Assembly (NCBI GenBank): GCA_004563595.2
Contig: CP042461.1
Coordinates: 420,001 to 452,000, forward strand
Source: Candidatus Saccharimonadota bacterium
Lineage (GTDB): Bacteria; Patescibacteriota; Gracilibacteria; BD1-5; UBA6164
Direction: 5' to 3'
Length of the DNA stretch: 32,000 bases
Below, piece after piece: positions 3,777-26,370 of the stretch. The translations under genes and the position numbers were made by a program. A model generated the notes under the pieces. That model saw only the letters and a program-made list of their open reading frames with translations, had not been told where the DNA came from and searched no databases. The stretch's first letter is position 1, and the number at the start of each line of letters is the position of its first letter.

Positions 3777-4595
3777 CTAAAAAATACTCACTAGTTTTGT
3801 AAATGATTGTATCACACTTTTTTTATCTCACTTCAATCATACTATCTTGTGCATCAAAATATTATCAATACATCAAAACAAAAAATTATCATATGCAACA
3901 GTATAAGTAAGATCAAGGTTATCTATAAAATCAGAATAAAAATACTTTATATCACTGTACAATAAAGCGAGCCTATCTTCTAGAGTTGTATCTTCTAAAA
4001 ACTCTAACTTTGTTTGATATTCTGTGAAAAAATCTTTTCATCACTTGATCCAAAAATTATTTAATATTTTTAATTCTTTATTTTCTTCTAAGAGATTCTC
4101 TTTATCGAAAACATTTCACTCTAATAAATTTCTTAAATTTTTATAATCGTTTTTCTGTATATTCTCAATATTTAGTAGAGAAGTAAATCATTCTGACTCA
4201 CTGGCTGGCTTAAAAATTATAAATAGATATAAAAGCATTTCCATTTTTATATCTTTTCACCTGTTTTCCCAGTTTGAATAAATGTTATTGAAATCTGAAA
4301 TTAAATTCACTGCATGAATATCTGACGGTACAATATTTTTTAAAAGACCTTGCCTTCTGAGAGGAGTTAAATTTGTAGAATCGTAGACTATACTTTCCAT
4401 TCATGCATTTATATAATTATTTATTTTTTTATAAGAGTTATTTACTCATATAATATTTAATTCATTTTGAGTATAATTATTGTTTTGTAATATTGCTATT
4501 TCATCATCACTGCTCACGATCTTAGAATCTTTATATCATTGCAAGTACGTTGTTTTTCCACTACATGGAGGTCAAACTAATATTGTTAGGCTCAT
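3777..4595 (-). CDS. P-loop NTPase/kinase (AAA_33 / polynucleotide-kinase-like N-terminal domain) with an unknown C-terminal half (272 aa)
   Basis: MSLTILVGPPCSGKTTYL is a Walker A motif whose first Gly is TGA. Downstream ..VYDSTNLTPLRRQGLL.. resembles small kinase folds. The frame was checked codon by codon. ATG 4595 overlaps the upstream stop by 1 nt (TAATG). Confidence 0.75.
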
Positions 4596-7533: not shown

Positions 7534-8451
7534 TTAACTTGCTGAAGTAGTTGTATCTGCTTTTTCTTGGGCAGCTTTTTGTGCTGCGATTCTTGCTTGT
7601 TCAGTTGCGATAGCATTGAGTCTATCAGTTTCTATCTTTGCCAGTCTTTCAGCCTCTTTTTCTGCTGCTAACCTTTTTTCTCTTTCAATTTTTCATTGTT
7701 CAATTTTTCTTTTTGTTTCTTCTCGTTCTTTTGTCAGGGCTATTTTTTTATCTGCTTCTATTTTTGCGAGTCTTGCTCTCTCATCTGCTTCAGCTAAGGC
7801 CTCATTATTAGCATTTTCTTTTATAATAGCTTCATTTCTAGCTATCTGCGCTGCTTTTTTTTCAAGACTGAGATTAATAGCATCAATATATACAAGAATT
7901 TTCTCTTGGATTAAGATATTTAGCTCTGAGAATAGAAGTTTCTTTTTTTCGTATTTATAAATCATGTTTTCTTCATCTGTGCTTGTTATATTTGATTCAA
8001 GAGAAAATATTTTTTCATCAATTAATTCATTCAGTCTTTTGTATATACTTAATTTTCTTGTATCAGCACTATATTTGTTATTAATATTGTGAGAAAATGT
8101 ATCTAATTTATCTCTCAATATTGTTTTTTCACTTTCTGAGAGTATGACCTTCTTCTTTTCTATTGTTTTTTTCACTTCTAAAACTGGATTATTATCTGAT
8201 ACTGCAGTATTTGGATGAGTATATGTCTTGTGATAATCTCAACCGGATTCTTTTTCATATGACCAACCACTTTCTTTGCCTCAACTTTCTGCATAAGATG
8301 CGTCTATTAGTGATATATTCAATTTTTTAACGCTCCAAAAGTTATCAAGGTCACTGTCTTGTAGTGAGATTACTCATCAAAACGATAGAGTAGATACAAA
8401 AAATATACTTCAAATAGCGATTACTTTTACAAGGGATTTTTTTAACTTCAT
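7534..8451 (-). CDS. Secreted or membrane-anchored coiled-coil protein, Ala/Glu/Lys-rich C-terminus (305 aa)
   Basis: The N-terminal hydrophobic segment MKLKKSLVKVIAIGSIFFVSTLSFGGV looks like a signal or anchor. The C-terminus has repeated ..ERARLAKIEADKK.. / ..AERLAKIETDRL... The track ORF 7693-8175 extends in both directions through TGA. Confidence 0.75.
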
Positions 8452-8612: not shown

Positions 8613-8671
8613 GACTATGTCATTTTTTCTGAAGCTATTTTCAGAGATAATATTTTGATAACTTTGTGATT

Positions 8672-10072
8672 ATGACGACTCAAAAACAGTCATCAGATTT
8701 AGGAATGAATCAAGGTCAACAAGAATCAACACCTTTGAAAAGTAAATTTTCAGAGGGCTTTCAACGTGCTCAATCTGAGATTAGTAAAATTGCAAAAGCT
8801 GCAGTTGTCACTCTTGCAGCAACAACTGCTACTCAAGCTTTGGCAAATGAAGTAAAAGGGAATACAGATAAAATATTATTGGCTCAGGTGTCTCCTGTAG
8901 ATGTTATAGCTCCTGAGCTTCAAGATATCGTTTCGGATCAGTTCATCGTTGATGCTCAGTCTGAAGAGATTGAACAAGATACATCCATCAATTTAGAGAG
9001 TTTTATATTAAGGCCCGCGTATGAGCCATACAAGTGAGTAGTGTCAGATGCGTATGTAAACTTAGAAGAAATAGATCCAAACTTTGTGGTGCCATCAAGT
9101 ATTCATACTATTGAAGACTTTCATACATTACTTTCAAGTATTGCTGTGGTTCGTGATTCAAGTAGGATACAAGAATGGAGAGACAAGATGGATATATTAG
9201 TTGTGGAAAATCCTTCTCTCTTTCAAACATATCTTCAATCAGTAAATGCTTATCGTGCTACTCTTCAAAATGAAGATGTAGAGACAGTAAATCCAATGGT
9301 TCCAGAAAAGATTGTTACTTCTCTTGGTACTATTATTACTGAAAAATTTTCAGATATGGAGACGAAGAAAAGGCAATTAGAATATGCTCAAGATATATAT
9401 ACTGTATTAGCTATTTTTACTAAAACAGGTGATTTTGACTGAGTATTTGACCTTGCTTGAGCTCAAAGAATAGAGAATGAAGATTCATGAGCATGATATT
9501 CTTCAATTGAATTGACTCCAGAAAGGATAGAATTCCTCTTATCAATTTGAAAAAATATTTCAATGGAAGATGTTCTTTGATTGAATAAACTTCATGAAGA
9601 ATTACTTGCTGATGTAGAATCAGCATTAGATTATTATTCTGAATTACTTCATTTGCCAGTTATAGAGTGACAGGAAGAAACTCTTTTAGAAATATGAGAT
9701 ATAGTGAGAGCTGGGATTCAAGAACAAATTCAGTGAACGTTACTCAGTGAGAAATATGTAACAGGAAGATATTCGGAAAAAACAGATGAATGGAAAGAAA
9801 AAAAGGCTAAAAGAACGGTGTTAACAAGATTAAATGGGTTTTTCAAATGAGTTCAAAACTCTAGTTCAGAATACTTATTAAAATATTCTCCAGAATTTAC
9901 TCAAAACTTACTTAATTCAGAGGAACAAATCCTTACAATGAACCCATCACTTCAATGAGTATTTAATAAACTTTCTGTCACTCAGAGTAAAGATAATATA
10001 GTAAAGTTAAAAGAAATAAATAAAAATTTAGGAAAAATAAAAAAAGATTTTATACAGCTTACGTGAAGGTAA
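8672..10072 (+). CDS. Hypothetical secreted protein (466 aa from ATG 8672; GTG 8666 is also possible)
   Basis: Track ORFs 8666-9037 and 9041-9442 are one frame joined by TGA and continue to TAA 10070-10072. The N-terminus ..KIAKAAVVTLAATTATQALANE resembles a signal peptide with an AxA site. No family recognised. Confidence 0.7.
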
Positions 10073-10171
10073 ATTATTAACACGAAGTAATATTAGTTGT
10101 CAATAGAAATAACTCTCTTTTTATAAGGGAATATGGTAAGATATTATAAGATTATTTATAATATCTTTTTT

Positions 10172-11884
10172 ATGGCATTTGAAGGAGCAAATACATATCC
10201 TGAGCAAGTTGAACAGATATGAAATATTCAGGAAAAAAGTGAACAATTAATTCATCCAGAGATAGATGAATTAATATCTTTGTTACGTAATGATTTTGAC
10301 TGGAATGATGATTTTTGAGATCAAGAAGCAGAGTTATTGAAATTTCAAAAGTATGTAAATTCTTTGGATGATGAGAAAAAGCAATATATTATAAAAACCT
10401 TTTGATCTGTAGAGGAACCTTGAGCTGATCCTGAAAGAATATGAGATGATATATATGATAATGGATATATTATTTCTGATATATCTTTTTTACATTTTTC
10501 TACTGAATTTTGAGCAAACTTTGAAGAAGCATCAAATGAAGAGAAAGTTAAGTATGATCAAGATGAAGTTTGATATGAACAGGAAAATATAAAATTAATG
10601 AATGAAATTTCTGAAGCATTAGGGCGTTTACCGGAAGTATTATGATTAAGAGGGGCTAATTTAGAATGAGAAGCTGGAAGGAAATTAAATACTCTTATCA
10701 AGGAGTGGAATCTTAAAAAACCTGGTGATGATGTTCAGGATATTCTTAAATTACAAAAAGAGTTTCTTGATATATTAAAGAATAATCCTGCAGAAAGAGA
10801 AGCTTTATTAGGAGCTATATACAAAGATCCAGAGCTATATAACAGCTTGAAATCATATGTGATTGCTTTAGATTCTAGCTTTGAAGCTACATTTAAGGTG
10901 TATGAAAATCTCCACCCAGCGAATCCGATTGAGGGAACTATAATTAAATGAGCATTTTCTAATAACAATATTGAAAGAAATGGAGATATGCTTGAATCTG
11001 AGGTATGAAACGGTCAAAAAATTGTCTTAGATCTCTCAAAAATCCCACCAGAAAGATTTATCAGTAATGGGACCTTTTCACTCAAAACAAAATTATCTAT
11101 TTGAGAATTTTATCCAGCAATATCAGAGTATTGAATCGCATTTGAAAATGCACAAAAAGAAACCCTTCCACAAAATGCTCGTTTAGAATCTGCTAAAAAC
11201 TACCTTGAAAGCCCCGAATTTCAAAATAGTGACCTCAATGTAACAAAGAGAAGATTACTTGTAATCCTAGGAGAAGAATTATCGAATGAACTCTGAGTAA
11301 CATTTGCCTCTTCCAAAGAAATACTCTCAAACAAACTCTCAAGTATAAACCAAAAAATAAAAGAGAATACAGACCTCCTTTCTCAGCTAGAATATGAGTA
11401 TCAAAATGCACTTGAATGATATCTTTCTGCTTATAGAAAAACAATGGAGCAAAAAGACCTCATCACTCGTGAAGCATTAGGATTTATAACAACTCTCGGA
11501 CTTGATATAATCATGACTCAAACTCAATTAACAGAAATCTTAGCAAGAATTAAGAGATGAGATCTCAAGCTTAATTTATGAGTCAGTTTTGACCCACAAA
11601 ATACTAATCTCGCAGAGTGAAATTTCTGAGAACCAAGAAATGAAGACAACAGAGATCAGTTTAGATGAAATATGACAAGGTTTGCGAATAAAATCCTCTG
11701 ACTCTCACCTGAATGATTGAATCAGGATGGAGAAATGACTTGATTTGATATAGAAACCTATAGAAAACTTGAGAATTGAGCGCAACCCAAGATGGGAACA
11801 GAACTCACTGCTTTATATGAAAATGCATGACTCTCTTCTGAAAAAGTAGGAATTGATAGGATTGTTGAGAATTTGAAATGATAA
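10172..11884 (+). CDS. Hypothetical acidic protein (570 aa)
   Basis: ATG 10172 to TAA 11882-11884 is open with roughly 35-40 in-frame TGA codons and no TAA/TAG. No family recognised. Confidence 0.7.
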
Positions 11885-11892
11885 GGGGAGAA

Positions 11893-11930
11893 ATAAAAGA
11901 GCTTATTCAGTGAAGAATATGCTCTTTTAT
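11893..11930. terminator. Bidirectional terminator hairpin
   Basis: ataaaagagc (11893-11902) pairs with gctcttttat (11921-11930), with an inner tattc/gaata extension. It has A/T runs on both sides and lies between the convergent CDS and the tRNA. Confidence 0.6.
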
Positions 11931-11943
11931 TGTGGTTGAAATT

Positions 11944-12021
11944 TGGTACCAGTGGGTGGAGTCGAACCACCGACCTCAGGGTTATGAGTCCTGCGCCACT
12001 AACCAACTGTGCTACACTGGT
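11944..12021 (-). tRNA. tRNA with CAU anticodon (Met elongator type or lysidine-Ile2; not resolved)
   Basis: Minus-strand cloverleaf with a 7-bp acceptor stem ACCAGTG/CACTGGT, discriminator A and encoded CCA. The D-arm is GCAC-AGTTGGTTA-GTGG and the anticodon loop is CTCATAA. The T-arm GGTGG-TTCGACT-CCACC is perfect. Total length is 78 nt, and the A31/C39 and G10/G25 positions are non-canonical. Confidence 0.85.
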
Positions 12022-12075
12022 ATATTAGAAGTAATATAATTATATGTATTAATTGTAATATGTATAATTAGTTTC

Positions 12076-12726
12076 CTACCAATGTTCTCAAAAAATGACG
12101 TTATATATAGTATATGGTCAATCATACGCTTCTAATATCCCTTCTCTATACTCTTTTTTTCTTTCTTCTGTAAAGGTCTCAAATTCTTCACACATATCCA
12201 TATGTACTTTTTCATGGTTTTTATATGGCATGGAATTTACTCATATTATATCAGTCTGGATATCACAAATATCTTTTGAAATATGCCTATATGATGCATC
12301 TTCTAAAAAAAATTTAATTTTTTCTATAATTATTTTCTGATTTTCAGATAATATTTGATCTCTAAATTGATCAATATAGTAATATTTAAATGGAACCGAA
12401 ACTATTATATTAAAAGGAGAGTCAATTTTATTGTCATCACTCCTGTAATCTATATGAAATGAATTTCAGTTATCCATATCAAAATTTCATGCCCATACTA
12501 AAAAATTCTCAACCTGTATTTTTTTCATTAATTCTTTTGTAATATTATCAAGAAAAGATATTTTTTTATCGTAATTATATGAATCAAGTTTTAATCTATT
12601 TAAGTTCTCTTTTTTTAATAAATAGATATCAAATATATCTTTAGGAATCTTAAGTTTCTCTTTTAATAAATCTTCATATAATTGTTCTTTTGTTTTCATA
12701 AATATAGGATTAATATATAGTTTCAT
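12076..12726 (-). CDS. Putative immunity protein, paralog A (216 aa from ATG 12726; 207 aa if it starts at ATG 12699)
   Basis: The track ORF 12487-12726 extends through TGA to TAG 12076-12078. The C-terminal ~50 aa (MPY..H.KVHMDMCEEFETFT.ERKKEYREGILEAYDGPYTIYNVIFGEHW) is near-identical to the gene at 13649-14281, while the N-terminal halves have diverged. Confidence 0.7.
12077..12232. repeat. ~155-nt near-identical repeat (partner 13650-13805)
   Basis: By-eye alignment shows about 10 mismatches. The repeat covers the 3' ends of the two immunity-like paralogs. Confidence 0.85.
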
Positions 12727-12826
12727 TTCATTTTTGAATATCTGTATATCCGTGCACTGATCAATCTTTTCTAATAATTATTCTCATAAAATCTGTATTA
12801 GTACCATTTTTATATATAATTTTCAT
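12710..12826 (-). pseudogene. Orphan toxin C-terminal tip (38 codons), homologous to the last ~35 aa of the 1102-aa protein
   Basis: MKIIYKNGTNTDFMRIIIRKDGSVHGYTDIQKGNETIY compares with ..IYAKNGTNTDFMRIIIRKDGSVHGYPDVINGTNDIVIY in the full-length gene. Nt 12746-12811 match 14323-14388 with 2 mismatches. Confidence 0.6.
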
Positions 12827-13496
12827 CCTTAATAATAATGGACTCTCAATATAATAAATGTTTTACTTTAAAGGCTCACTGATAATCCAATCTAATATAT
12901 TTTTCTAAGTCGTTTGTTTTGTTAATTATTTTTTCTCTTCAATCTTCTCAATCAAAATAAAAATCATTTTCTCAGAAAGATAAATTATATTGTCTAGTCA
13001 TCATTCTTTTATGATATTCCATTGAATGAAAATCCTCTCATTCAATATCTAGTTCTTCTTCAGCTATATCTTTTGTTAATTTATTATATCACCTATTTTT
13101 TAGAAAAATTTCAATGAGTTTAATTTTTTCTTTATCAAAAGTTGGATTAATACAATAGTATTTTAATAGTCAAGATAAGTAAATTACTCAATGTCATTCA
13201 ATTGTTAAACTTAAATAGTATCACTCTTCATCTTCAATAAAAATATCTGTAACTAAATTATGTTTATTTAGGTCTTTGCTAATTTGAAAGCCATTGTTAT
13301 TGGGGGAATTTATTAAAGAATCTTTATAGTCACTATTTACATACTTGAATAGCTCTTGTTTTATAAAATTTTTACTAGAAAATATCTCTTTCCCTGAAAT
13401 AGCCTCTATACTGAGACATAACTTTGGTATATTTTCAAGCTTTTTTTTGTGGTTTTTTTTGAATAAATTAGATATTTCTTTTATATTCCTATTCAT
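12810..13496 (-). CDS. Hypothetical protein (228 aa) lying between the two immunity paralogs; possibly another immunity gene
   Basis: The track ORF 13221-13496 extends through 10 TGA codons to TAA 12810-12812. No motif recognised. Confidence 0.6.
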
Positions 13497-13648
13497 AATT
13501 TAATTTTTAATTCATAATGTAGAATTTTGATGTACAGGAAAACCATGTATGGCTCAATCATTTTTGATAATGATTCTTATTTTTTAAGTAACTTTCAGGA
13601 TTCTTCATATTATGATATTTATAGTCTATAAATCAGGAAATATATCTT

Positions 13649-14281
13649 TTACCAATGTTCTCAGAAAATTACGTTATATATAGTATATGGTCAATCATAC
13701 GCTTCTAATATTCCTTCTCTATACTCTTTTTTTCTTTCCTGAGTAAAGGTCTCAAATTCTTCACACATATCCATATGTACTTTTACATGATCTTCATATG
13801 GCATACTATAACTTCATACTATGTCAGTAGGTATTTTCCATAATTCAAGGGGGAGAGTTTTATATAATTTTTCTTTTAAAAATGGAATGATTTTATTGAT
13901 GATTTCTAATATTTCTCATTCAACTTTTTCTTCTCTGACCTGTTCAATATAATAATATGGTACATCTAACGATACAGCTATATTAAAGGGGGAAAACTTT
14001 GTCATATCTTTAGAGTGGAATCAAATACTAAAAATATTAGATCAGAAGGTATTTGACCGTGATGCTCATAATGCATAATGAGGTTTATTTACTAATTTAA
14101 TTAATTCATCAGAGATTTTTTTAATAAATTTTTTATCCCTTTCAAAACTCTTTTTTGTTTCTTGAAAATAATCAATGTTTCCTTTCCTGCTTTTATATAT
14201 CTCTAATATTTCTTTTGGTAGTTTATCTTTATTCTCGAGGATTTTTTTTAAACATTCATCTCTATTCATAGTAGTGTTCAT
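13649..14281 (-). CDS. Putative cognate immunity protein, paralog B (210 aa)
   Basis: ATG 14281 overlaps the TAA of the upstream 1102-aa gene by 1 nt (TAATG). The track ORF 14066-14281 extends to TAA 13649-13651. It is a paralog of 12076-12726. Confidence 0.7.
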
Positions 14282-17200
14282 TAATAAATAACGATATCAT
14301 TAGTTCAGTTGATTACATCTGGATATCCGTGCACTGATCAATCTTTTCTAATGATTATTCTCATAAAGTCTGTATTAGTACCATTTTTTGCATATATTCA
14401 AACATCAGACAGTTTAACTAGAATCCCGTCAGATTTAGTTTTATTAATATCAAATACATCTTTAGGAACCTTGTCTAAAGCTATTTTATGTAAACCTATA
14501 ACTTCATCAGAGTTAGTTGTGTAAAAATAACTTTTTGGTTTGTTAGGTTTATCTTTTAATGCTTTTTCATAAAGAGGATTTCATTTAATATGCTCCTGTA
14601 CTTTAACTGCTCCTTGCAAAATCTTAAATTGAAATCAGTTTTTACTTTCAAATGTTAGAGTTTTTGAAAACTTATTTGCTTGCTTGAGCGTATTTAAGTC
14701 CTTTGAATCATCACTGACAAGTTTTTTACCTTTATTTAATTTTGATAAAGGAATGAGGTTCAGAGCTATATGAGTTTCTATATAACTTTTGTAGTATCAT
14801 TTATCATAATCAGAGTATCCATCAATAATTTCATCAATATTTTCTAATATTTCTATCCCATCTACTAAATATTCTGGTAGATTTGATAAGTTTAAGTTAA
14901 TATCGCTATTTATCAAGTTTGTCATTGCTTTTTTTACTGCTGATAGAAGCTCAGGGAGCATTGATGGGTCAATTATTTCAATCATTCCAACTATAAAATC
15001 ACCAATTGCTTTCTCAGTTCAATCAATTGATCATAGACCTGGACTATACACTCTTTTTAGCTCTTTTAATCATTCATCTGACTGCATGAGGCTGTATACT
15101 TGATCTATATCTGGTATGAGTTGTTTATATGTGTTATATTCATTATCATTTAAAAATCATGAATTATATATTTTTTCTAAGAAACTCGATGAATATACAC
15201 TTTTTCAAGTTAATGTTTCATAGTTTTCTCTGGTGTTATATCATACCAGTGTAAGATACTGTTGGATTGCTACTTGATAATTTAATGACACCTCTGTTAG
15301 ATTAGATAGGACTACTGTATCAAAATAATCAAAATCTCTTAACTTTTTTATTAATGAATCATTATCAATTGTTTCCTCTATTTGTTTATTATTTGCCTCT
15401 TTAATCAAAAATTCTCTCACTGCCTCTTCATGATCAGAATTATTTACTTCAATCCTATCCATTGTAGAAACAGTTGAGTAATCTGGAGCAACTTTAAATT
15501 CTATCCATACGAGCGCAGGGTAATCATTCCCAGTTCACTTTCTGTTGTATTTTGTATACACAGTAAAAGGGTACTCTTTGTATTCATTTGTACCATAAGC
15601 TCATCAACTTATATAATTTTTTATCTGGCCTTCATCATAACGAGTGCTTGATTCTAAGGTTTCTGTATCAACTCATTTTTTAGAAAGATAGGTATTGAGT
15701 CTTCCAAGAAACCCCTCGGGATTATATATTGTCGTAGCATCTAAATCATCATTTCCTTCATTTCCTCATAATATTGGAGTTTCATCTTCATCATCATTTA
15801 TGATAATAACATCTGGACTTTCAGAATCACCACCTCAAAAAATGATATCATCACTGGTATCCCATTTATCTTCCATCAGCGCTTGTTGCTCTGGAGTAAG
15901 CTGATTAAAGAAGTAAGCATCTCTTTCTAAATATCTTCTTACCGTAGCAGATCACCTATCTCATCTGGATGATCAGAGATTAAAGTTTATCCACACCCCA
16001 TCAGGTCTCAGATATCTTTGTTCTCATGTAAAATCTCTGTCCGAAAATTTTACGATTCATGTATCACGATAAAAACTATTGTTACTGGTATCTTGATATC
16101 TATTTTTGTATTGGTAGACTACAGTTATTCCATACACATTTGCTATTTTTGGCACCCAATATTCTTCTTTATTTTGATACCTACAACCATCATTTTTTAT
16201 ATATCAATTTAACCATACGGGCTTTACCGTATCTGATATCCAGTATTCTTTGAAAGTATCATCTTCTATATTTTCAATAATTTGAGACGAACAATAGAGT
16301 CTTTTTACATATAAGTTTTGTGTATTTACATTGTTTATAGTAATTACTAGGTCTTTGCTTCTTCAGTTTTCATAGGTAAGTGTGAGAACTATCTCTTGGG
16401 ACTCTCAATTATAACGTTCACTTGGCCTATATGCTAATATTCCTCAGTTCACTTCTAACGAAGAGTTATTTCAAGATTTGATTGTGGCTGTAATAGCTAA
16501 ATTATTTTCATTTTTTATAACTCATAAATCGTACCAATTTATTTCAAATTGATCTCATACTGGTCATTCTATCACCGTAGGGTATTCTACAGAAAAATTA
16601 CTCACTTCTATTGCTGTAGTATTTTCTGCTATATTTTCTTCATCGAGGTTTTGAGATGTATCTCAATTACTTTCAGGAGTATTTCACTCTGAGAGCGTAC
16701 TTGAATTAGTAAAAGTTTCTACTATGGAAACAGAACCATTTTTATATGTCTCTTTGATGTAAAGTGTTTCTCATTGATATATTGCTATTGAATCATCATT
16801 ATATAAAGCCCAATCTTCTCAGTTGTAACTGATATTTATATATCAATCAGTATCAGTTTTTGTTAATCTCAGATAGAGAGTACTATTTTCATATTTCCTA
16901 TCAACAATAATGATATTTGAATCTTGCTTGATAGTATCTATTGATTCAGTTACAAAAGAAACACTTCTATCAGTTATAATTGTAGAATCATTATTATCAC
17001 AGTTGTGTGCATCATTTATATTGATTTTTCAATCAGAGTTTGTATCTGATAATTTTAAACCATCGGTAAGTATCTCACTTATCTTTTTATTTATTAATTC
17101 AACATTAACTGAAGAATCTGAGTTGAGGTATAAGCCAAGATTCTCTCAATTTTTTCACAGAAGTATTTCTGTTACTTGGGTAGTACATAAATTAAGATGG

Positions 17201-17589
17201 GCATTCACTAAGTTATTTGATGATACAATTGTTTTTATGGCATCAAGAGTTCCAATGTCAGAAGATGAAGATATAATAAGCTGAGTGTCATCTTCTAAAT
17301 CTTGTTGTATTTCTCTCAGGTTCAGTTGGTATTTTCAATTTGAGTCGGTGATTGTTTGATAGATGACTTCTCCTGAACTGAGTTTTTGAATCTCAATATT
17401 TGAATTTGGTGCTCATCCGTCTAGAGTGATATTTTCGTTTGATGTAGCTAGACTTTCTGATACATTATTTTGTCATGAATCATTTGTGGATACTGTAGGT
17501 CATTCACCTCAACAACCTCCAGTTGATAATAGAGCTGCAAGCGAAATGGTTAGTATAGGTTTATTTAATTCCTCCTTCTTAAATAACAT
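14281..17589 (-). CDS. Large surface lipoprotein with a polymorphic-toxin-like C-terminal domain (1102 aa)
   Basis: One frame runs from ATG 17589 to TAA 14281-14283, and every codon was checked for TAA/TAG. Track ORFs 14797-14985 and 15241-15462 lie in this frame. The N-terminus MLFKKEELNKPILTISLAALLSTGGCGGEG has a signal peptide and lipobox Cys. The C-terminal tip is duplicated as an orphan at 12710-12826. Confidence 0.85.
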
Positions 17590-17683
17590 ATATTTTCTAT
17601 TATAATAATAATACAATAACAAAATTATAATAATAAAAGTCAAGAAGGCAATATCCTTCACCTTGACAATTTTACTTTTTTAC

Positions 17684-17710
17684 TTGACAAGCTTGAAATA
17701 AGATTATAAT
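17684..17710 (+). promoter_or_regulatory. Candidate promoter for the cadherin-like lipoprotein gene
   Basis: TTGACA (17684-17689), a 15-nt spacer, then TATAAT (17705-17710). The spacer is shorter than optimal. Confidence 0.35.
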
Positions 17711-17743
17711 AAATAAGAATTTTAATTTATAATTTGAATGATT

Positions 17744-18832
17744 ATGAAAAGTTTAGACAAGATGAGTAATGAAGTGGATACTTCTAAGGAATCTCAATGA
17801 ATATTTCCTAAAAAAGTAAATAAATTACTTATAGCTACAGCTTTTTCGGCATCTCTTCTGACTGGATGTGGTGGATGAGGAGGAGGTTGATCTGATACAT
17901 CAGCAAACAATACTTGAACTACAGTTGAAGCACAAAATGCAGCTTTTGAAAATGCAGTTAGCGATTTAGAACTGAGAACACTTACAATAGATGATAATGC
18001 AAATCCTACTGATACTTTATCACTTGATGTAGATATATCAGGTTTAACAGAAGTTACTTTTTGAGACAATGAAGATAATATTCTTGTAACTTGAACGAAT
18101 GGACCAAAAATTGTACTAACAGTCTCATCAGATGACTATGCTGATGTATGAGAAAGTGTTGAAAGCTTATCTTTCAAAAACATACATGCTATAGCTATTC
18201 CTAAAGACTTGGTTGTAAATAAAGTTGATGAAACTCCAGATTTACAGGTTTCAAACCTTACTTGTTCTGAGACCGTTACTTTATGAGATCCTATTAACTG
18301 TTCAGCTTGATATAATTTTCAAAATAGTTACACACAAGCAACAGCAGGTTTATATGACAGTTTTGGTAATTTAATAACAGACTTTACAGTTACTGTAGAT
18401 ACAGATACTAAAAATGTAGTGTTTGATCAAGCTGATACTGCTTCACTTGATGCAGGAGATTATACTATAAAAATAACTTTTGAGTGAGAAGGTTGAGATC
18501 AAGAATTTGAAAAAGACTTAGAGATTATTGCTTCTAATACTGCACCAACTGCTGCTGACGTAAATCTTAATGTTGGTGGTGAAGAAACAATAACTTACGA
18601 CCTTGATTGAGATATATCAGATACTGAATCTACTGATGCTAATTTAACTGTTTCAGTTGTTTCAGGTCCTTCACATTGATCATTATCATGGAACGGAAAT
18701 GAATTTACATACGAAGTAACTGATGGAACTTTCTATGCAGGACCAGATAGTTTTACATATGAAGTAACTGATGAAGGGTGATTAAAAAGTACCGTTAAAA
18801 CTGTAAGTATGACAGGGATATTCGATTTTTAA
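17744..18832 (+). CDS. Lipoprotein with a C-terminal cadherin-like/bacterial Ig-like domain (362 aa)
   Basis: LLIATAFSASLLTGCGGGGGGSD has a lipobox followed by a Gly run encoded by mixed GGN and TGA. The C-terminus APTAADVNLNVGGEETITYDL..SVVSGPSHGSLSWNGNEFTYEVTDGTFYAGPDSFTYEVTDEGG fits the cadherin-like/VCBS-type pattern. ATG 17738 or 17762 are alternative starts. Confidence 0.8.
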
Positions 18833-18840
18833 AGAGAAAT

Positions 18841-18895
18841 TAATATCAATTAAAAACCCATTGAATAAAATTCAATGGGTTTTTAATTGATATTA
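18841..18895. terminator. Perfect ~26-bp inverted repeat (bidirectional terminator)
   Basis: taatatcaattaaaaacccattgaat (18841-18866) pairs with attcaatgggtttttaattgatatta (18870-18895). It sits between convergent genes, and the right arm contains the TAA of the pilin-LamG gene. Confidence 0.65.
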
Positions 18896-21082
18896 TTGGT
18901 TATATATTTTTAGATAATTTACAACTCAATTCAGTTGTCATGTGAGATTATTTTTTGATCAAATATATAGGTCGTTAGCATCTATTGAGTCAATTGGAAA
19001 TAGTCTTGTTCAAATGTGTAAAGTTTTACTTTTATTATTTATAATAATTGTTTCAAAATTTGATAAAAAAATTAAGTTGCAGGGTGTTGTACCCCCATCA
19101 TAACAAATAATATTTCCTTTATACTTTATTGTATGTTGTAATCATGCCTTTCATATACTTAATCACTTATTTATTTCATTATCAAATATATACCTTCATC
19201 AAGTTTGTTCAAGTGCATTTTTCTCTACACTCATTTCAATTACATAATCATCATCATCACCTAAGTCTAACCCAGCTCAAAGATATTTTAAGTAATCACT
19301 CCCATCAATAAGAACTCATCAATCATCTATATTAACCCCTGCTGAGTCTGAACTAATAATTCAACTATTTGTATACATATCAAAATCTCAAGCTTCATTA
19401 TATGGTGCGTATGCTACTAATTCCCATCAATCAACGGTAAGCATAGTATCAGTTTCGGCACATTCTTCACTTGTTCCTACAGTAAAAGTATCACATGGAG
19501 TATTTAGAGAAGTATCATCATAGTCAGCTGCAATAAGAGGAATAATCAAAGTTTGACTATAGATTTCAGTTCCATCAGCTTTAGTATATCAGAATGCAAC
19601 TTTTAGCTCACTATCAGCTGAAGTATAGGTATTGAGTGGCTCTTGTGAATCCATTGTTGTATCTTGTGTCAGTGTTAATTGAGTATCTGATTCCCAATTA
19701 TTAGAAAGTAACTGACCATTAATCTTTATAAATTCAGCATTGTTTTTAAGAGTATCATTTAACTTAATATCTATCTGATAGTTATTATTGTTTATATATG
19801 AAAAAGTAGCAAGTTGAGTTTGAATAGTATTTGTTATTTTTCAATAATTATTTAATGCTTCACCTTTTATTTGCGGTGGAAGAGAATTGAGAGCTGAGGT
19901 AGAAATATTTGTAGATCAACCATAGCCAATATCAGTTCATTTTTCAGGGTTTCCAGTTATTACTTCTATATATGTGGTTCCATTAAGATCACTTGATATT
20001 ACTGATGGAAGTCAGGTTATAGGAGCTGTAGAAATAGAAGGAGTAGACTTATTTAGCGTTTGACTTAATACCTTGTAGTCAGTGAGTCCTGAAATGGATA
20101 AGACGTTAACCTTTCATTCTTTTACAGTAATATTTGTATCAATATCTTTTTTGATTCAAAAAATAGTTCACCTTACAGCTGCTGTAGCATCTGTTGTATA
20201 TATTTCGAAATCAGAATCATCATCGAGACTAGTTGCTTTATTCCAGATAGTTCATCAACCAAGAGTCAGTTTGATATCAGTGAAGAGATTATTTTCTTTT
20301 TTGAATACCATTTTTGACAGAATAAGTTCTGAATTATTTGCTGTATCTCATAGAATTGATGATGTTCAGTCTGAGAAATATATTTCAGCGTATCAACCAC
20401 TTAATACTGTTATTTTATCTCATTCACCAAGAGTATATGAGAGTATTGCTCAAGTATCAGTGATATTTTCATTGATAGTTACGGTTCCATCAAAATCATT
20501 TATTTTTGCTACTAAGATTCTTTCATCTGGATTATATGGGAAATTTGATTCTGATCCATCATACACGAAATCTGGTCCATTATATTCTCTGATAAGATTA
20601 TATGGTCACACTTCAGCTGCATAGTTTCATCTTACAAATGATTCTGCTTCTCAATTTACCCAATTGATTCCGGCTAATTCATATTCTTCATTTGCTATAA
20701 GCTTTCCATATGCATAGTATTGATTTGTTTTTGGATCAAGAGGCAGGGCATCAAGGTATCTTTTTGGAAGGGTTCATTCTGTAATAAAACCATGAACTCA
20801 GAAAATATCCGACGATGATGAATGAGCATATGATGCGTCTTCTTTGAAATAGTTATTATTTCATGTTGGGAGGGGGAGTGTTTTTGTTTCTTGTTTGTAC
20901 GACTCAAGAGAGTTTGTTATCGTTTCTATATCTGCAGTTATTTTTGAGTTGTTTGTCTTGTCTTGATAGTTATTGCTAACTGTAAAACCAACCACTGCAA
21001 GTAAAGCTATAATTGAAATCGTTATAATGACTTCCACAAATGAAAAAGCTTTTCTATTTTTGTACACTACCATTTTTATCAT
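18893..21082 (-). CDS. Prepilin-type N-terminus fused to a large body ending in a LamG/concanavalin-A-like lectin domain (729 aa)
   Basis: The N-terminus ..KNRKA/FSFVEVIITISIIALLAVVGF is a class III signal with Glu at +5. The C-terminus ..GVLIDGSDYLKY..DDYVIEMSV..GGRYIFDNE..LHIGTR..DLYIGSKNNLTGQLNGVVNYLKIYNQ fits the Laminin_G_3 pattern. The frame was verified codon by codon. Confidence 0.85.
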
Positions 21083-21186
21083 GTTAAAAAATAACGAGAT
21101 ACTCCTTATAAATGGAATACAATTTTTAGTATATATATTTAGCAGAGTTTTACAAAAAATCTTTGATAGAATTTAATCTTAGAAAC

Positions 21187-21214
21187 TTGCTATTATATTA
21201 GACTTGTGTATAAT
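21187..21214 (+). promoter_or_regulatory. Candidate promoter of the five-gene operon
   Basis: TTGCTA (21187-21192), a 16-nt spacer, then TATAAT (21209-21214). Confidence 0.45.
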
Positions 21215-21248
21215 TCATAAAAATTTACTTCTTATTGAATCTTTGAAT

Positions 21249-21728
21249 ATGAAAAAAATGGATATTATTTTATTAGGTGAAGTTAAAAAAATTTTATCAG
21301 AAAATGAAAAATATACTCTGGATCCAAAAACTGAAAAATTAATTAATGAAGTTTGCCTATATTTAGAACAAATTTATGCAAATCAAATAGATGTTAAAGA
21401 GCTGGAGGAGTGTTATTTAACGTCAACGCTTGTTTTAATTTGAAAAATAGACAGATTACTTGAGTCAATAAAAGTAAGTAAAATAAAGGAGTATAGAATA
21501 ATGATTGATTTTAAAAAATGAGTTAGTTTTAACGAATTTGTAGAGTATTATAATTTTATTTGATGTGAAGATGGATTACAAACAGATATGTGAAATACAA
21601 CATCATTATTTAATAATTTACAACAATCTTCAACTACTCAGTGATTGTATCTTTTACATCAAGAGCTATATGAGCATGAAGATGACACTGATGATTCTCT
21701 TTATTATATAATATTAAAGTCTAATTAA
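21249..21728 (+). CDS. Hypothetical protein (159 aa)
   Basis: ATG 21249 (in frame with track ORF 21204-21443) extends through TGA to TAA 21726-21728. Confidence 0.6.
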
Positions 21729-21729
21729 T

Positions 21730-23124
21730 ATGTTATATTTTGAATATTTTCAGAACTACCTTTTAAAAGAATTAATTATCTGCGAGAAGCAATATTTAGA
21801 ATTTAAAAAATATATTAAAGAAAATAATATTATTTTTAGTGATGAATTATTACTTTTAGTTGAAAAAAAAATAGAGTTATGCAAAAATGATATTGATTCT
21901 TTTCGTCTTGAAAATGGTTTTAAAAATGAAATATTATTTAGAACATTACTACAAGAGATATCATTAATAAAAACTGAATTTGATTGGAGAAGTGCGGCAT
22001 ATCAAAATAGTTTACATACTAATACTTATAATTTATTTAATTTAGATAAAAAAGATGTTAATTATAATAGGTATGGAAGTAAATACATTTTAAAAATTGA
22101 GGAATATTTATTAGAGCTGTATAATATCCCTAGTCATTATAGGTGTCTTGTAACATCCTCATGAATGTCTGCATATTCATTAATTGAATGAGTGTTACTT
22201 AGGAAATTGTATCATAGTAATGATACTATATATATACCTTGATATATATATTTTGAGTCTTATGAACAAATAAGTAAATTAAAAAGCCTATGATTAAAAA
22301 TTATGACTTGAGATAGTAATAGTTTTAATGAAGAGTGAATTTTAAATTACATATATACAAATCAACCTAAATTTGTTTTTTTAGATTCAGTGTTAAATAC
22401 TTCCGATAGTAAAGTCATAGATTTAGATTATATATTTTCTAGGCTTAATAATAACTATAAAAAAGAAATTTTTATAGTTACTGACTTAACTATGTCTTGA
22501 ATTGATTGTACCTTCACAAAATATAATAATTTGAATATATTGATGTATGGAAGCGCTTCAAAATATTTATTTAATTGACTTGATATTTCTATGATGTGAT
22601 TTGTTTTTGTAAATAAAAACTTTTATGAATATGCTGAGAGACAAAGAAGAAATATATGAGCAATACTTTATGATTTTCAGGCTTGTTGTTATCCACGAAT
22701 TTGAACGACTTTTTTTAACGATAGGTTAGAAGCAATTAACCAAGATGTAATACTTTTTTTTAATAGTTTAAGGAATAATAATAAAATTAATGATAAATAT
22801 AAGATATGCTATGCTTGAGAAAAGTTATTTAAAATTTGAAAATCTTTTTGATGATCTATCATAACTATAAGTTTTATAGATGATAATTTGAAAAATAAAG
22901 AAAATTACAGTAATTTGATAGATTTGTTGATAAAAGAAGCACAAAAAATGGAAACCCCTTTAATTGAGTGAGTTAGCTTTTGATTCTCTATTACAAGAAT
23001 TTCTGCTTCGGATGTTATGTCAAAATGAGAACCACCTTTTCTAAGAGTTTCTATATGACCGAGATATTATAATAAAATTGAAAGCATAATTGAAATTTTC
23101 ACAAAAATTTTGATTAATTATTAG
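21730..23124 (+). CDS. PLP-dependent enzyme of the Cys/Met-metabolism (trans-sulfuration, fold type I) family, divergent, with a ~130-aa N-terminal extension (464 aa)
   Basis: TSSGMSAYS, DLTMSG, YGSASKYLFNGLD (candidate PLP lysine), ..GVSFGFSITRISAS.. and FLRVSIG appear in the order expected for cystathionine lyase/synthase-like enzymes. The frame was checked. Confidence 0.65.
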
Positions 23125-23142
23125 TAATTAATTTATAATATT

Positions 23143-24039
23143 ATGAGTGAAAGTATAAAAAAACAGTATTTTTATAAGAAAAATAATTTTTTGTGATATT
23201 GCTATATATTAAGTTATATAGCGTTCTTTTGATCAATTATTTATTTTATAATATCAGTTAATAATTTAGGAATTATTTTTTTATTAATGATGATTTTATG
23301 ATTTTTTCAAGCATGATTTAATCAATGAAAACATGAATTTTTACATAATACTGTGATTAATAATAAGATTTTAAATCATTTTTTTTGGTATTTTTTTTCA
23401 ATACCCATTCTTGTAAATCCGCACTTAAATAAAGATTTCCACTTATTACACCATAAATCCCTATGAACAGATGATGACCCAGAGTTATCTTTTAAAGTAA
23501 GAAAAAACTATAGCTTTAACGCAGTTCTATGGGATAAAATAAAGAACCCTTTTATATTAGACTTAATATTTTTAAATTACAAAATATTATTTTGTAATAT
23601 TTATCCATCTTATGTCTCTGAAGAAAATAAAAAAATAGTTAAAAAAGATTCTATAATAATTTTTTTAACTCATATATTTTTTATTGGATTGATTCTTTAT
23701 AATGGAAGTTATTATTTATTATTTATTTGGTATTTTACTTTAGAATATATTTGATTTAATATATTATGTATGTTTGACATAGCTGAACATAGATGATGTG
23801 ATATTACTGATTTTGAGAATAATTCAAGAACTGTAATATCTAATTATTTCATAACATATATTACTTGGTTTAATAATTACCACTCTGTACATCATAAAGA
23901 TTCAAAGGATAAATTAGTAACTTTTTATAAAAGAAAGAAATATTTTGATCTATTTGATAAATATAAAACAAGGAAAATAGAAAAATCTTATCTGAAGTTT
24001 ATATTAAAAATTAATGAAAATCCAAGTTTTTATAAATAA
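23143..24039 (+). CDS. Membrane fatty-acid-desaturase-family di-iron protein (298 aa)
   Basis: Three His boxes (HEFLH, HLLHH, HSVHH) are separated by hydrophobic segments. Confidence 0.8.
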
Positions 24040-24049
24040 ATAATATATT

Positions 24050-25099
24050 ATGAAGTTTATTAGTCCAGAAAGTTGAGAATTAACAAATGATGAAAAATGA
24101 AATATCCAACAGGATATATTACTATCTGTTTATGATAAGGATTATCCTGTTTGAAATACTACTAAAGCTATCGAACAAATAAGAAGTGGTATTCAAAAAG
24201 TCCTGTTTTGGAGTGATAGCCTTGATGTACTAAAACAAGGAACTTGATGAACAATCTCTTTAGTTAAAGATGAAACAAAATGAAATAGTACTTTTGAAAT
24301 GTGTAGAGCATGATCTAATATTAATAATGGATGATGATACAAGGCCGTATTTGAATTATATAATTGTTTTTTAAATTCAAATTTTAACCAATTATTTGCT
24401 ACTCCGAGAAACTGCTTAGATAGAGAGAATGAGGAATGAAAAAAAATTCCATGATGAAAAGCTATTTCATTAATATATTCAAGATTGAAAGATGTTAAAT
24501 TTTGGTGAATAGCACCATGGTATATCATGCCATGAAATACCATGGAATTACTTGATTTAAGGATATTTACGAAAAATGATTTAGTGAGAGAAAGGTTAAC
24601 AAAGTGAGATAAATTATACATTTTTTCTGATAAATATAAATCTGTATATGAGGAAATGATTGATAATAACTATTGAATAGAAAATGTGATTTCTTCTCTA
24701 GGTAAATTATCAAAACAAAAAAAAATATGAGAATATAATTTTTTTATTGAGTATGACGACAATGAACATACTAGTAATTATACTTATTCATCTGTTAAAG
24801 TAAGTAATAAATGAGAGCACAGTATAGACATGATAGAGACAATCTTATCTACTTTAAAGAGTAAAGTTTCAATTTTTAAATTAAATTTGTTTGATAGCTC
24901 AAATGTTTTATTACAAGAATATTTAGACACACATTGATACGTTTTAGTTTCACTTTTCCCAGAATCTAATCAAATGATATGATACTTTGTAAAAAGCGAA
25001 AATAAGAAATACGCTTTGCCTTATTATTATGGAGAGGATCAATTATCAAGAGATATGGATATACAAGCTAAAATTATTAACTTATTTATTAGTTCTTAA
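24050..25099 (+). CDS. Hypothetical protein (349 aa)
   Basis: ATG 24050 to TAA 25097-25099 is open with about 25 TGA codons. The 142-aa track ORF on the opposite strand is an antisense artefact. Confidence 0.65.
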
Positions 25100-25102
25100 T
25101 TT

Positions 25103-26077
25103 ATGAATTTTACACAAATCAAATTAGAAGAAATTTTAGAAGCAATGAAAAGTTTTGAAGATATTATAAAAACTACACCTTTGGAGTATAATAAATATTT
25201 ATCTCATAAATATAAATCAACTATTTATCTTAAAAGAGAAGATTTGCAAGTTACAGGATCTTTTAAAATAAGGGGGGTATTAAATTTTATTAACAATAAC
25301 AAACTGCATTGCATTGAAAGATGAGTAGTATGCGCCTCAGCATGAAATCATTCCCAATGAGTAGCTTTGATGTGTAGGAAATTTAAAATTTTTTGAGACA
25401 TTTTTTTACCTATAAATACTCCAAGTTATAAGGTTGATAAAACGATACAATATTGAGGAGATTTTATAAAGGTACATCAAGTAGGATCTGATTTCGACTT
25501 TTCTTATAATCAGGCTAAATGTTTTTCTCAAAATAATGAAAGTGTTTTTATTCATCCCTTTGATGATAGAGATATTATAGTTTGACAATCCACAGTATGA
25601 TACGAAATTTTTAGTGATACATCAATTACTGACAATATAGATTTTATAGTTTGTCCTATTTGATGAGGGTGATTAATCTCTTGAATTATAGAATCTGCTA
25701 AGCTTTTTTCTCAAAGTACTAGAATACTTTGATGTGAGCCTGAGTGAGCTTCTTCAATGAAAAAAAGTATAGAAGAATGAAAGGTTGTGAAATTAAATAA
25801 AATTGATGTATTTATTGATTGAGTTAGCGTCAAAGAAGTATGAAATTATAATTTCAATATTTGTAAAAATTATAATTTAAAAATAGAATTATCAAATTTG
25901 AACTCATTATTAAAAACGATTTTTGATATTTATGAAAAGACCAATATTTCAATGGAATTAGCCAGCGCAATGACGGTTGATATACTTAATAATATTTCAG
26001 ATAAAATAAAGTGAAAAACAATTGTGTTAATAATCTCATGATGAAATATTGATATGAATAAATTGTATTCTTTGTAG
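25103..26077 (+). CDS. Fold-type-II PLP enzyme, threonine/serine ammonia-lyase-like, without a regulatory ACT domain (324 aa)
   Basis: SFKIRG (PLP lysine), ASAGNHSQGVA and the CPIGGGGLISG tetraglycine loop (three of its four Gly are TGA; the third is GGG) are present. Confidence 0.85.
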
Positions 26078-26221: not shown

Positions 26222-26248
26222 ACTTTTATTAGTTTCTAATAAGGACAT

Positions 26249-26366: not shown

Positions 26367-26370
26367 AATT

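Follow-up and report, generated by a model that had tools for sequence, protein, structure and literature searches.

A probable polymorphic toxin-immunity locus with tail-only orphan cassettes behind a predicted lipoprotein gene of a Gracilibacterium

Results

Organization of the locus

The closed genome of "Candidatus Gracilibacteria bacterium" 28_42_T64, a 1.34-Mb contig that uses genetic code 25, is the source of the DNA analyzed here (assembly GCA_004563595.2, contig CP042461.1, positions 420,001 to 452,000); this whole stretch of 32,000 nucleotides (nt) is referred to as the window, and all positions are given in it. Between 12076 and 17589, the minus strand carries an array that begins with the gene of a large protein, the carrier, and continues with a small partner gene (imm1) and two cassettes, in each of which a short piece related to the tail of the carrier gene (tip 2 and tip 3) stands beside a further partner gene (g228 and imm3). 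We consider it likely that this array is a polymorphic toxin-immunity locus of a Gracilibacterium, and the words toxin and immunity are used below in that predicted sense. Its features are as follows.

14281-17589, minus strand: carrier/toxin gene A9Q91_02105, 1102 amino acids (aa), 44 TGA=Gly codons, open reading frame (ORF) in code 25
N-terminus of the carrier, minus strand: MLFKKEELNKPILTISLAALLSTGGC, from the code-25 translation
17512-17589, minus strand: predicted signal peptide and lipobox-like LSTGG/C (aa 1-26), read directly from the sequence
14680-15021, minus strand: pre-toxin module (aa ~857-970), lineage-specific; 157 bits with a local hidden Markov model (HMM)
14284-14640, minus strand: predicted C-terminal toxin domain (aa 984-1102), divergent Ntox50-like, from a six-member family alignment
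13649-14281, minus strand: imm1, cognate partner ("immunity") gene, 210 aa; ORF, 265 bits with the partner family HMM
13500-13583, minus strand: orphan toxin tail 2 (tip 2), 27 codons, KIRIIIKNDGAIHGFPVHQNSTLGIKN followed by a stop, subtype B; 34.8 bits with the C-terminal domain (CT) HMM
12810-13496, minus strand: g228, orphan partner gene 2, A9Q91_02095, 228 aa; 214 bits with the partner family HMM
12710-12826, minus strand: orphan toxin tail 3 (tip 3), 38-codon ORF, MKIIYKNGTNTDFMRIIIRKDGSVHGYTDIQKGNETIY; 42.8 bits with the CT HMM
12076-12699, minus strand: imm3, orphan partner gene 3, A9Q91_02090, 207 aa, paralog of imm1
14323-14388, minus strand: repeat block A, copy 1 (toxin tail), 66 nt
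12746-12811, minus strand: repeat block A, copy 2, 2 mismatches against copy 1
13649-13828, minus strand: repeat block B, copy 1 (3' end of imm1); repeat search, 179 nt, 89%
12076-12255, minus strand: repeat block B, copy 2 (3' end of imm3); repeat search, 179 nt, 89%

The TAA stop codon of the toxin gene (14283-14281) and the ATG of imm1 (14281-14279) share one base in the sequence TAATG, exactly as claimed in an earlier, sequence-only description of this DNA (the original prediction); this is the geometry of translational coupling from the toxin to imm1. A terminator scan of 11800-17900 detected no terminator-like site within the array, and a promoter scan of the same interval was uninformative, with fewer promoter-like sites than in shuffled sequences.

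Genetic code of the toxin genes

Calling ORFs in the window (GC content, 28%) with table 11 fragmented everything (16 ORFs of at least 100 aa, 2,156 aa summed), while TGA as a sense codon (table 4/25) gave 59 ORFs and 14,538 aa; code 25 was therefore used. The carrier is 100% identical to P0001, the NCBI hypothetical protein A9Q91_02105, in which the TGA positions are Gly. The one other database entry, P0002, represents this gene with TGA read as Trp and differs at 44 positions, all G to W. Reading TGA as Gly is functionally supported, since the Pfam scores of related toxin domains double once W is replaced by G; the score of an EndoU domain, for example, rises from 24.1 to 47.7 bits. Metagenome gene calls in Logan, JGI, and ENA translate code-25 toxin genes with TGA=Trp (P0002, P0003, P0007, and others), and because this roughly halves the Pfam scores of toxin domains, such toxins are systematically underannotated.

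Distribution of relatives

A word-indexed protein search with the full carrier returned only the protein itself and its TGA=Trp mistranslation, and the C-terminal 146 aa gave no match in that search. A profile search found four proteins, and an exhaustive HMMER search of 1.8 billion representatives yielded 28 matches in a modular pattern: P0003 matched over its full length, residues ~850-975 recurred in many shorter proteins, and the last ~120 residues recurred at the ends of P0004 and P0007. Two degenerate-DNA scans for the tail motif (Gly as TGA or GGN) in GTDB genomes and JGI metagenomes produced three true loci and six chance matches, adding L008 and L011 to the set of related loci; L007 duplicates L002. 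The genomic contexts of the relatives were decoded with table 25. L006, L009, L010, L012, and L013 were rejected as chance matches, with GC contents of 35-53% and no other similarity. Three of these chance matches, in Flavobacteriaceae-like contigs (GC, 35-37%) at L006 (~7816-7853), L012 (~2401-2438), and L013 (~4366-4403), have a longer conserved stretch in common, in a stop-rich frame, which may be a conserved noncoding element or RNA gene and is not related to the toxin locus.

A lineage-specific module joined to different toxin domains

The N-terminus of the carrier, read from its sequence, has a charged n-region, a hydrophobic core (Kyte-Doolittle hydropathy, 2.07 over 12 aa), and Cys26 in a lipobox, a signal-peptide-like arrangement that would provide the trafficking signal of a polymorphic toxin. 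The homolog P0003 has a canonical lipobox (...LLGISG/C) when TGA is read as Gly, and a lipoprotein encoded next to the array has LLTG/C. Pfam scanning gave no match anywhere on the 1102-aa protein, and NCBIfam and PADLOC scans of the window proteins were likewise without meaningful result; the earlier statement that the carrier shows no Rhs/YD, hemagglutinin, or LXG repeats stands.

P0003, an 1152-aa protein encoded at L004, is a full-length homolog of the carrier with 40% identity. The C-terminus is the best-conserved region of this pair (60-67% identical, against 25-50% in the body), so that the pattern of a well-conserved body and a highly variable tip is not seen between close relatives. 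The toxin of L008 is 40% identical to the carrier over aa 668-1090 and contains the pre-toxin module; here, identity falls from 53-62% at aa 881-1040 to ~31% in the last 60 residues. The original prediction had anticipated a C-terminus that varies beyond a conserved junction; this is not what the comparison with L004 shows, and such variation is confined to the wider family and, against L008, to the last ~60 residues.

The HMM of the pre-toxin module scored 123 bits on L004, which had been held out, and 95-175 bits ahead of EndoU, barnase-type, ColE3-like, Ntox50-like, and unassigned C-termini; besides the carrier and P0003, the module precedes the differing C-termini of P0008, P0021, P0030, P0013, P0010, P0027, and P0031. 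The domain that follows is EndoU_bacteria in P0008 (47.7 bits) and in a second gene of L014 (38.7 bits), a barnase-type Ribonuclease (PF00545) in P0030 (52.6 bits, ending in RRIVIGKGGERYYTEDHYSTFIKIK), and a colicin-E3 Cytotoxic domain in P0013 (20.7 bits, below the cutoff of 22); the C-termini of P0010, P0027, and P0031 have no assigned domain. The EndoU, barnase-type, and ColE3-like genes are each followed by small genes. One shared upstream region is therefore joined to different toxin domains, as is characteristic of polymorphic toxins, and at L005 and L011 the Ntox50-like domain stands behind other, unrelated upstream sequence without the module, which points to domain shuffling.

A second, short conserved domain lies at carrier aa ~660-740 (window ~15370-15610; YPFTVYTKYNRKGTGNDYPALVWIEFKV). 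It recurs in many other large proteins of Gracilibacteria, among them P0011, P0012, P0014, P0016, P0020, and the products of the 1387-aa gene of L002 and the 1532-aa gene of L005, and the sequence that the main gene and the orphan of L002 have in common consists of this domain. The domain may be a second recombination or processing junction.

The C-terminal domain is Ntox50-like by transitive homology

According to the original prediction, the C-terminal domain matches no toxin family. Three of its relatives, however, pass the gathering cutoff of Pfam PF15542, Ntox50 (22.2 bits): L005 with 29.8, L008 with 28.9, and L011 with 25.9 bits, over positions 5-87 of the 92-position model; L004 (20.1 bits) and L002 (14.6 bits) fall below it. 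The window domain scores 160 bits on the family HMM and is 37-61% identical to these five relatives. Because its own copy lacks a Pfam match, we file it as Ntox50-like by transitive homology, and on that basis it is a predicted divergent member of the Ntox50 clade of BECR-fold ribonucleases (RNases).

The published description of Ntox50 predicts an RNase of the BECR fold in which H, S, K, T, H, and K residues and an HxVP motif are conserved, including one N-terminal and one C-terminal His (Zhang et al. 2012, PMC3482391). In the six-sequence alignment, the invariant positions are H1000, K1019-S-Y, E1029, D1083-G, and H1087-G-[YF]-P1090; there is one N-terminal (H1000) and one C-terminal (H1087) invariant His, and HG[YF]P occupies the expected place of HxVP, with Y or F where the family has V. 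A member of the family, the C-terminal domain of Bacillus subtilis YxiD (YxiD-CTD), has been shown experimentally to be a metal-dependent tRNase that is neutralized 1:1 by YxxD, encoded downstream; its structure is close to that of Neisseria MafB2-CT2 (PDB 8HHJ) (PMC12700104). The predicted toxin of the window would probably cleave tRNA or other RNA through H1000 and H1087 of HG[YF]P.

When the family profile was compared with PDB, the MafB2 toxin (8hhj_B) was matched colinearly but weakly (E=0.16). AlphaFold2 (AF2) models were computed from exact database protein strings; for the toxin domain, the model had a predicted local distance difference test score (pLDDT) of 83.4 and a predicted TM-score (pTM) of 0.76, with a strand-helix-helix-strand-strand-strand order in the C-terminal two thirds, and a Foldseek search of BFVD returned no significant viral neighbor for it. 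Single-sequence searches of PDB gave spurious TPR or enoyl-CoA hydratase matches only, and a relation to the barnase-type C-termini was rejected (hhalign probability, 0.9%). The toxin profile has a weak link to the P0010-type C-terminus (hhalign, 54%). Subtype-A toxin domains are basic, with an isoelectric point (pI) of 9.2.

A partner family follows the domain at all six loci

In six of six independent loci (the window, L002, L004, L005, L008, and L011, with L002 and L008 both from the metagenome-assembled genome [MAG] GCA_028688895.1), the gene after the C-terminal domain belongs to one and the same partner family. Scores with the family HMM are 214-283 bits for the three genes of the window and 172 bits for L011, which had been held out, and an alignment of eight sequences has 11 invariant positions and shows the C-terminal motif Y-x-G-x-[YF]-x-[IV]-x-x-[VL]-x-[FY]-G-E. 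By this measure, g228, which the original prediction had called unrelated, is a distant paralog of imm1.

The partner genes fall into types that follow those of the toxins. The cognate partners of L004, L005, and L011 are 49%, 48%, and 43% identical to imm3 and 36%, 35%, and 33% identical to imm1, so that the distal orphan of the window is nearer than imm1 to the cognates of other genomes, as would fit an older cassette displaced by a newer one. The partner of L002 (immA) matches imm1 with E=3e-29 and, over the full length, g228 with E=1e-5, and that of L008 is 45% identical to g228 (E=7e-54). The two families co-vary: at L008, a toxin tail resembling tip 2 goes with a g228-type partner, while toxins with DV..G..DI..Y tails carry imm3-like partners.

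The partner family has no sequence match in Pfam, NCBIfam, PADLOC, or PDB, and an AF2 model of imm3 (pLDDT, 76; pTM, 0.69) has no Foldseek neighbor in PDB. The proteins, in which no segment is hydrophobic, have mildly acidic pI values (5.2-6.3). A gene of one family directly downstream at every locus, with subtypes that co-vary with those of the toxin, suggests an immunity role; the imm1 product would then be a soluble cytoplasmic protein that binds and neutralizes the toxin in the producer.

Orphan cassettes in the window and at related loci

Within the window, the toxin-domain HMM detects the two tails and nothing else besides the main copy. Tip 2, which aligns with CT HMM positions 85-110, is a third and more diverged copy of the toxin tail. 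It lies in the frame of g228, with no start codon and with a TAA (13586-13584) just before it. A 33-codon ORF at 13507-13608 had been pointed out in the original prediction; this ORF exists, but its frame differs from that of the real homology, which is 13500-13583. Tip 2 resembles the tails of L008 (KIRIIVTSDGAVHGFPV...) and P0004. Since the L008 tail is of this kind and the gene downstream of it is the g228 ortholog, tip 2 and g228 appear to be the remnant of a second toxin/partner subtype, and the middle cassette is, by homology, a true orphan of that subtype. Tip 3 corresponds to CT HMM positions 76-110, has Thr in place of the invariant Pro of HG[YF]P (HGYT), and is called as a 38-aa protein (P0024) by some pipelines.

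Standalone toxin-immunity cassettes thus occur twice in the window, and further ones are present elsewhere: classical orphans at L002 and L014 and a tail-only orphan at L015. At L014, two tandem toxins have 891 nt in common at 97% and are each followed by paralogous ~140-aa genes; the L014 orphan matches the main gene over 196 nt (99.5%) at the 3' end of the pre-toxin module and has a different C-terminus after that. At L002, P0004 has no ATG, and 479 nt (79%) are duplicated from the upstream 1387-aa gene. At L015, an EndoU tail-only orphan (30.4 bits, model positions 67-128) stands beside a paralog of the EndoU partner, in the same geometry as in the window.

Some further observations concern these loci. 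The orphan C-terminus of L014 (5272-5823; …WTNHGFKH…SAGVIHGHPITEQEY) has a GxxHGxP end that resembles HG[YF]P; hhalign support is negligible (3%), and a relation to the window domain was rejected. At L002 (10422-11060), a g228-like gene after the toxin/partner pair has an in-frame stop (between …TKEL and EKVLDIDGED…), so that this gene is a pseudogene unless the MAG has a sequencing error there. The end of the 1387-aa gene of L002 (1103-5266) and a fragment at L015 (3718-3957) encode C-termini with an NGSGHYKP motif and no Pfam match, which may resemble GH-E/HNH-type nuclease toxins.

Mosaic identity between the cassettes

The original prediction held that a 66-nt stretch of the toxin tail recurs with two mismatches in a 38-codon orphan and that the paralog of the 210-aa gene is near-identical at its 3' end and diverged in its 5' part; both observations were borne out. 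The two copies of block A (14323-14388 and 12746-12811) differ at exactly two positions, both synonymous, and these two matches in the window compare with none expected from 100 shuffles. Imm1 and imm3 align without gaps at 46% identity overall, and their nucleotide identity changes at a sharp breakpoint from 52% before codon 156 to 93% after it (maximum chi-square, 85). Blocks A and B, at 93-97% identity, therefore flank a core of about 50% identity, made up of ~12 codons at the end of the toxin gene and 156 codons at the start of the immunity gene. Because block B (~150 nt) has no protein-level conservation in the L004 and L005 partners, the identity of the blocks is better attributed to recent duplication, gene conversion, or recombination than to constraint, and near-identical blocks around a saturated core indicate, at the level of sequence comparison, recent recombination or gene conversion.

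Repeats of this kind might also arise if an assembler collapsed or misjoined them, an objection that the original prediction had itself raised, and a contig of an independent Logan assembly (run SRR3580189) does end at 13755, inside block B. Up to that break, however, the contig follows the window with 100% identity for 12.6 kb (13755-26399), which is the behavior that a real repeat in a de Bruijn graph would give. The copies differ from each other (2/66 and ~10/153 nt), their flanks are entirely different, and each copy has homologous partner genes in other genomes. The 28_42_T64 genome is, in addition, a closed BD1-5 genome that was manually curated read by read with paired-read support (Sieber et al. 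2019, PMC6851277). As the copies are diverged and not collapsed, we judge an assembly artifact to be extremely unlikely.

A second alternative is that the downstream cassettes are decaying products of tandem duplication that have no present function, neither as protection nor as substrates for recombination. The loss of the start codon in tip 2 and of the invariant Pro in tip 3 would agree with this, as would the internal stop in the g228-like gene of L002 and the lack of tail-only orphans beside the Ntox50-like toxins of L002, L004, L005, L008, and L011. Against decay, g228 and imm3 are intact and full-length despite saturated divergence from imm1, imm3 is the nearer relative of foreign cognates, and two short blocks of near identity around a half-identical core are incompatible with uniform decay; the geometry of tail plus partner is also found with the EndoU toxin of L015. 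We therefore consider decay without function rather unlikely. Decaying tips beside intact partner genes are the expected signature of retained orphan immunity.

Genomic surroundings

The features around the array are as follows.

11944-12021, minus strand: tRNA-Met(CAT), found by ARAGORN and Rfam; marks the end of the array, probably incidental
17726-18832, plus strand: lipoprotein with poly-Gly after the lipobox, Big_9/cadherin-like (Ig-domain), from the Pfam scan
18893-21172, minus strand: large protein with an N-terminal type IV pilin methylation motif (FecR/pilin-like), from the Pfam scan
28270-29916, plus strand: large protein of the surface-protein neighborhood, with an N-terminal type IV pilin methylation motif

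The array ends 54 nt from tRNA-Met(CAT), and it is more AT-rich (21-25% GC) than its flanks (30-35%). The original prediction regarded the tRNA(CAU) gene as a typical island site, and both features would agree with a tRNA-targeted genomic island acquired by site-specific integration. Integrases use the 3' end of tRNA genes, however, and the array is located at the opposite, 5' (promoter) side; the neighboring genes encode neither an integrase nor a recombinase domain, no direct repeat of the tRNA appeared in the repeat search of the window, and none of eight related loci has a tRNA. The low GC content (21-25%) is typical of the small partner genes at all loci. Given the 5' position and the lack of an integrase nearby or of a tRNA at the related loci, the adjacency seems incidental, and integration of an island at this tRNA is very unlikely.

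The neighborhood is rich in surface proteins. Of two large neighbors with type IV pilin methylation motifs, the one contains a FecR domain and the other a Fib_succ_major-like C-terminus; the ORFs at 8651-10072 (plus strand, 466 aa) and 10127-11884 (plus strand, 583 aa), just past the tRNA, gave no Pfam match. At 18841-18895, exactly between the convergent genes 17726-18832 (plus strand) and 18893-21172 (minus strand), two 26-nt arms (TAATATCAATTAAAAACCCATTGAAT / ATTCAATGGGTTTTTAATTGATATTA) form a perfect inverted repeat around a 3-nt loop, which is probably a bidirectional terminator.

Discussion

The analysis of the array showed that its large gene encodes, directly behind a module that is elsewhere fused to known RNase toxins, a C-terminal domain linked at every locus to one family of small genes. 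The central claim of the original prediction, namely that a surface protein resembling polymorphic toxins is accompanied by a cognate pair and by orphan cassettes, is supported by this linkage (6/6 loci), by the module fusions to RNases, and by the transitive assignment to Ntox50. In our model, the 1102-aa protein would be exported by Sec and lipid-anchored at the cell surface through Cys26, with the C-terminal toxin domain displayed. The two downstream cassettes would be relics of earlier or alternative toxin/immunity pairs in which the toxin has been cut to its last 27-38 codons and the immunity genes are intact; the orphan immunity genes would probably defend the cell against relatives in which those toxin subtypes are still in use. 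Among the neighbors, which are Ig-domain lipoprotein and pilin-like genes, nothing points to machinery for secretion or delivery, although no search was aimed at such machinery.

Several results weigh against this interpretation. The lipobox of the carrier is noncanonical at position -3 (Thr), and compared with its full-length homolog at L004 it is the C-terminus that is most conserved, not most variable. The window's own domain finds no match in Pfam even at E<=10, so that its membership in Ntox50 is reached only via relatives with 50-61% identity to it, and a Foldseek search with its model returned no PDB neighbor, 8HHJ included (best E=0.7). Subtype-B toxin domains have a pI of 6-7 and hence no charge complementarity with their partners. 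The orphans of the window keep just 27-38 toxin codons, with tip 2 lacking a start and tip 3 the invariant Pro, and for that reason they could not on their own restore a different toxin, unlike the orphans of CdiA and Rhs systems.

The predicted toxin has its closest counterparts in the Ntox50 toxins YxiD-CTD/YxxD, which is an LXG toxin of the type VII secretion system (T7SS), and MafB2-CT2/MafI2. Common to them are a C-terminal PF15542 domain of ~100 aa (in our case via the three relatives above threshold), an N-terminal His with a second His in a C-terminal Hx[VYF]P motif, an immunity gene directly downstream, and their place in a polymorphic toxin. The window copy differs in being too diverged for the Pfam model and in having an extra N-terminal beta-hairpin and helices and a tail of 12-15 aa after HxxP; its carrier is a predicted lipoprotein with a lineage-specific module and not an LXG/T7SS or MafB-N protein, and its partner is an alpha/beta protein of 205-253 aa without Pfam or PDB match, whereas YxxD is small and Sm-like and MafI2 is helical.

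In its arrangement, the array resembles those of CdiA-CT/CdiI and Rhs-CT/RhsI, with a main toxin, an immunity gene, and promoterless cassettes of toxin fragment plus immunity gene, and the orphans of L002 and L014 retain upstream homology for recombination as these systems do. The orphans of the window, on the other hand, consist of the last codons of a toxin and not of a complete alternative one, and the homology arms are part of the toxin tail and of the immunity gene's 3' end. In Pfam and NCBIfam scans, the 1102-aa protein and its neighbors have no two-partner secretion (TPS), filamentous hemagglutinin (FHA), VENN/pre-toxin, or CdiB domain that would indicate contact-dependent inhibition; there is no RHS/YD or PAAR match in Pfam on the carrier and no RHS/YD among its homologs; and the carrier has no LXG match, its N-terminus being a Sec/lipobox signal and its neighbors pilin-like or Ig-domain proteins, unlike in LXG/T7SS systems. 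A clade-restricted region upstream of polymorphic C-termini is known from Neisseria (MafB-N/MafA) and Amoebophilus (APD1/APD2), in which the toxins are retained at the surface by a lipobox (APD1/2) or by a lipoprotein partner (MafA) (Zhang et al. 2012, PMC3482391). Unlike these regions, which follow the signal peptide, the module of the window stands just before the toxin (aa 857-970), and the body is poorly conserved; compared with the Amoebophilus effectors, immunity genes and orphans are present, and the host is a code-25 bacterium from the candidate phyla radiation (CPR).

The pairing of a predicted exported RNase with a co-encoded, putatively intracellular inhibitor also recalls barnase and barstar, and P0030 carries a barnase-type domain on the same module. 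It is therefore worth asking whether the protein could be a nutritional surface RNase that digests RNA of the host or of detritus for nucleotides that the organism cannot make, with an inhibitor that would only shield the producer until the enzyme is exported and with no killing of other bacteria. Every recognizable domain on the carrier module is an RNase (EndoU, barnase-type, ColE3-like, or Ntox50-like), a lipid anchor would hold the enzyme at the surface of its producer, and the genome paper, which does not discuss the toxin locus, argues that the organism lives on host-derived compounds and detritus (PMC6851277). A nutritional enzyme gives no reason, however, to keep intact g228 and imm3 for toxin subtypes that are no longer encoded, and it leaves unexplained the orphan modules with their recombination homology and the co-variation of toxin tails with partner subtypes. 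Ntox50, EndoU_bacteria, and ColE3 have, moreover, been described as polymorphic-toxin domains that act on intracellular RNA (PMC3482391; PMC12700104). The window domain itself shows no relation to barnase, and orphan partners and subtype diversity suggest conflict and not housekeeping. We regard a purely nutritional role as quite improbable and favor the toxin-immunity interpretation.

If the array is such a locus, its repeat blocks may show how it diversifies. One conceivable, though in our estimation unlikely, mechanism is an unusual tail-and-immunity swap, for which block A in the last beta-strands of the toxin and block B at the immunity gene's 3' end would be the short homology arms. Such a swap would exchange the extreme C-terminal tail of the toxin together with the N-terminal 156 residues of the immunity protein, which would determine specificity, and would leave the catalytic core constant. 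A crossover between the two copies of block A, which are 1,577 nt apart, is predicted to fuse the main toxin to the tail of tip 3 and to imm3 in a single step.

It is conceivable, though in our estimation unlikely, that Gracilibacteria, and probably other code-25 CPR bacteria, have a lipid-anchored toxin platform of their own. It would consist of a clade-specific module with interchangeable RNase warheads at the contact between episymbiont and host or competitor, independent of type V, type VI, and type VII secretion systems (T5SS, T6SS, and T7SS) and of Rhs, and would be diversified by the tail-and-immunity swap. If this were true, the 44 TGA=Gly codons of the toxin gene would block its translation in recipients that use the standard code.

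Polymorphic toxin systems and the Ntox50 family are already established, and no new principle is involved here. What is new are the partner family, the carrier module, the predicted lipoprotein anchoring in code-25 CPR bacteria, and the tail-only orphans, for which the searchable literature holds no prior description; Rhs/TccC-like genes of CPR genomes are mentioned there only in passing, and the toxin family of the window not at all. No immunity family was assigned to Ntox50 in the 2012 survey (PMC3482391), and the partner family is a new candidate immunity family for RNases of this type. In code-25 lineages, whose toxin genes are broken up or mistranslated when called with the standard code, the carrier module may serve as a handle for finding toxins.

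The CPR, or Patescibacteria, which live attached to other cells, account for much of the diversity of bacteria, and to our knowledge almost none of the molecules that they use against hosts or competitors have been described. The locus in 28_42_T64 provides a concrete, testable candidate for an effector/immunity pair in this group, and its tail-only orphan cassettes may illuminate how the specificity between toxin and immunity protein is encoded and exchanged.

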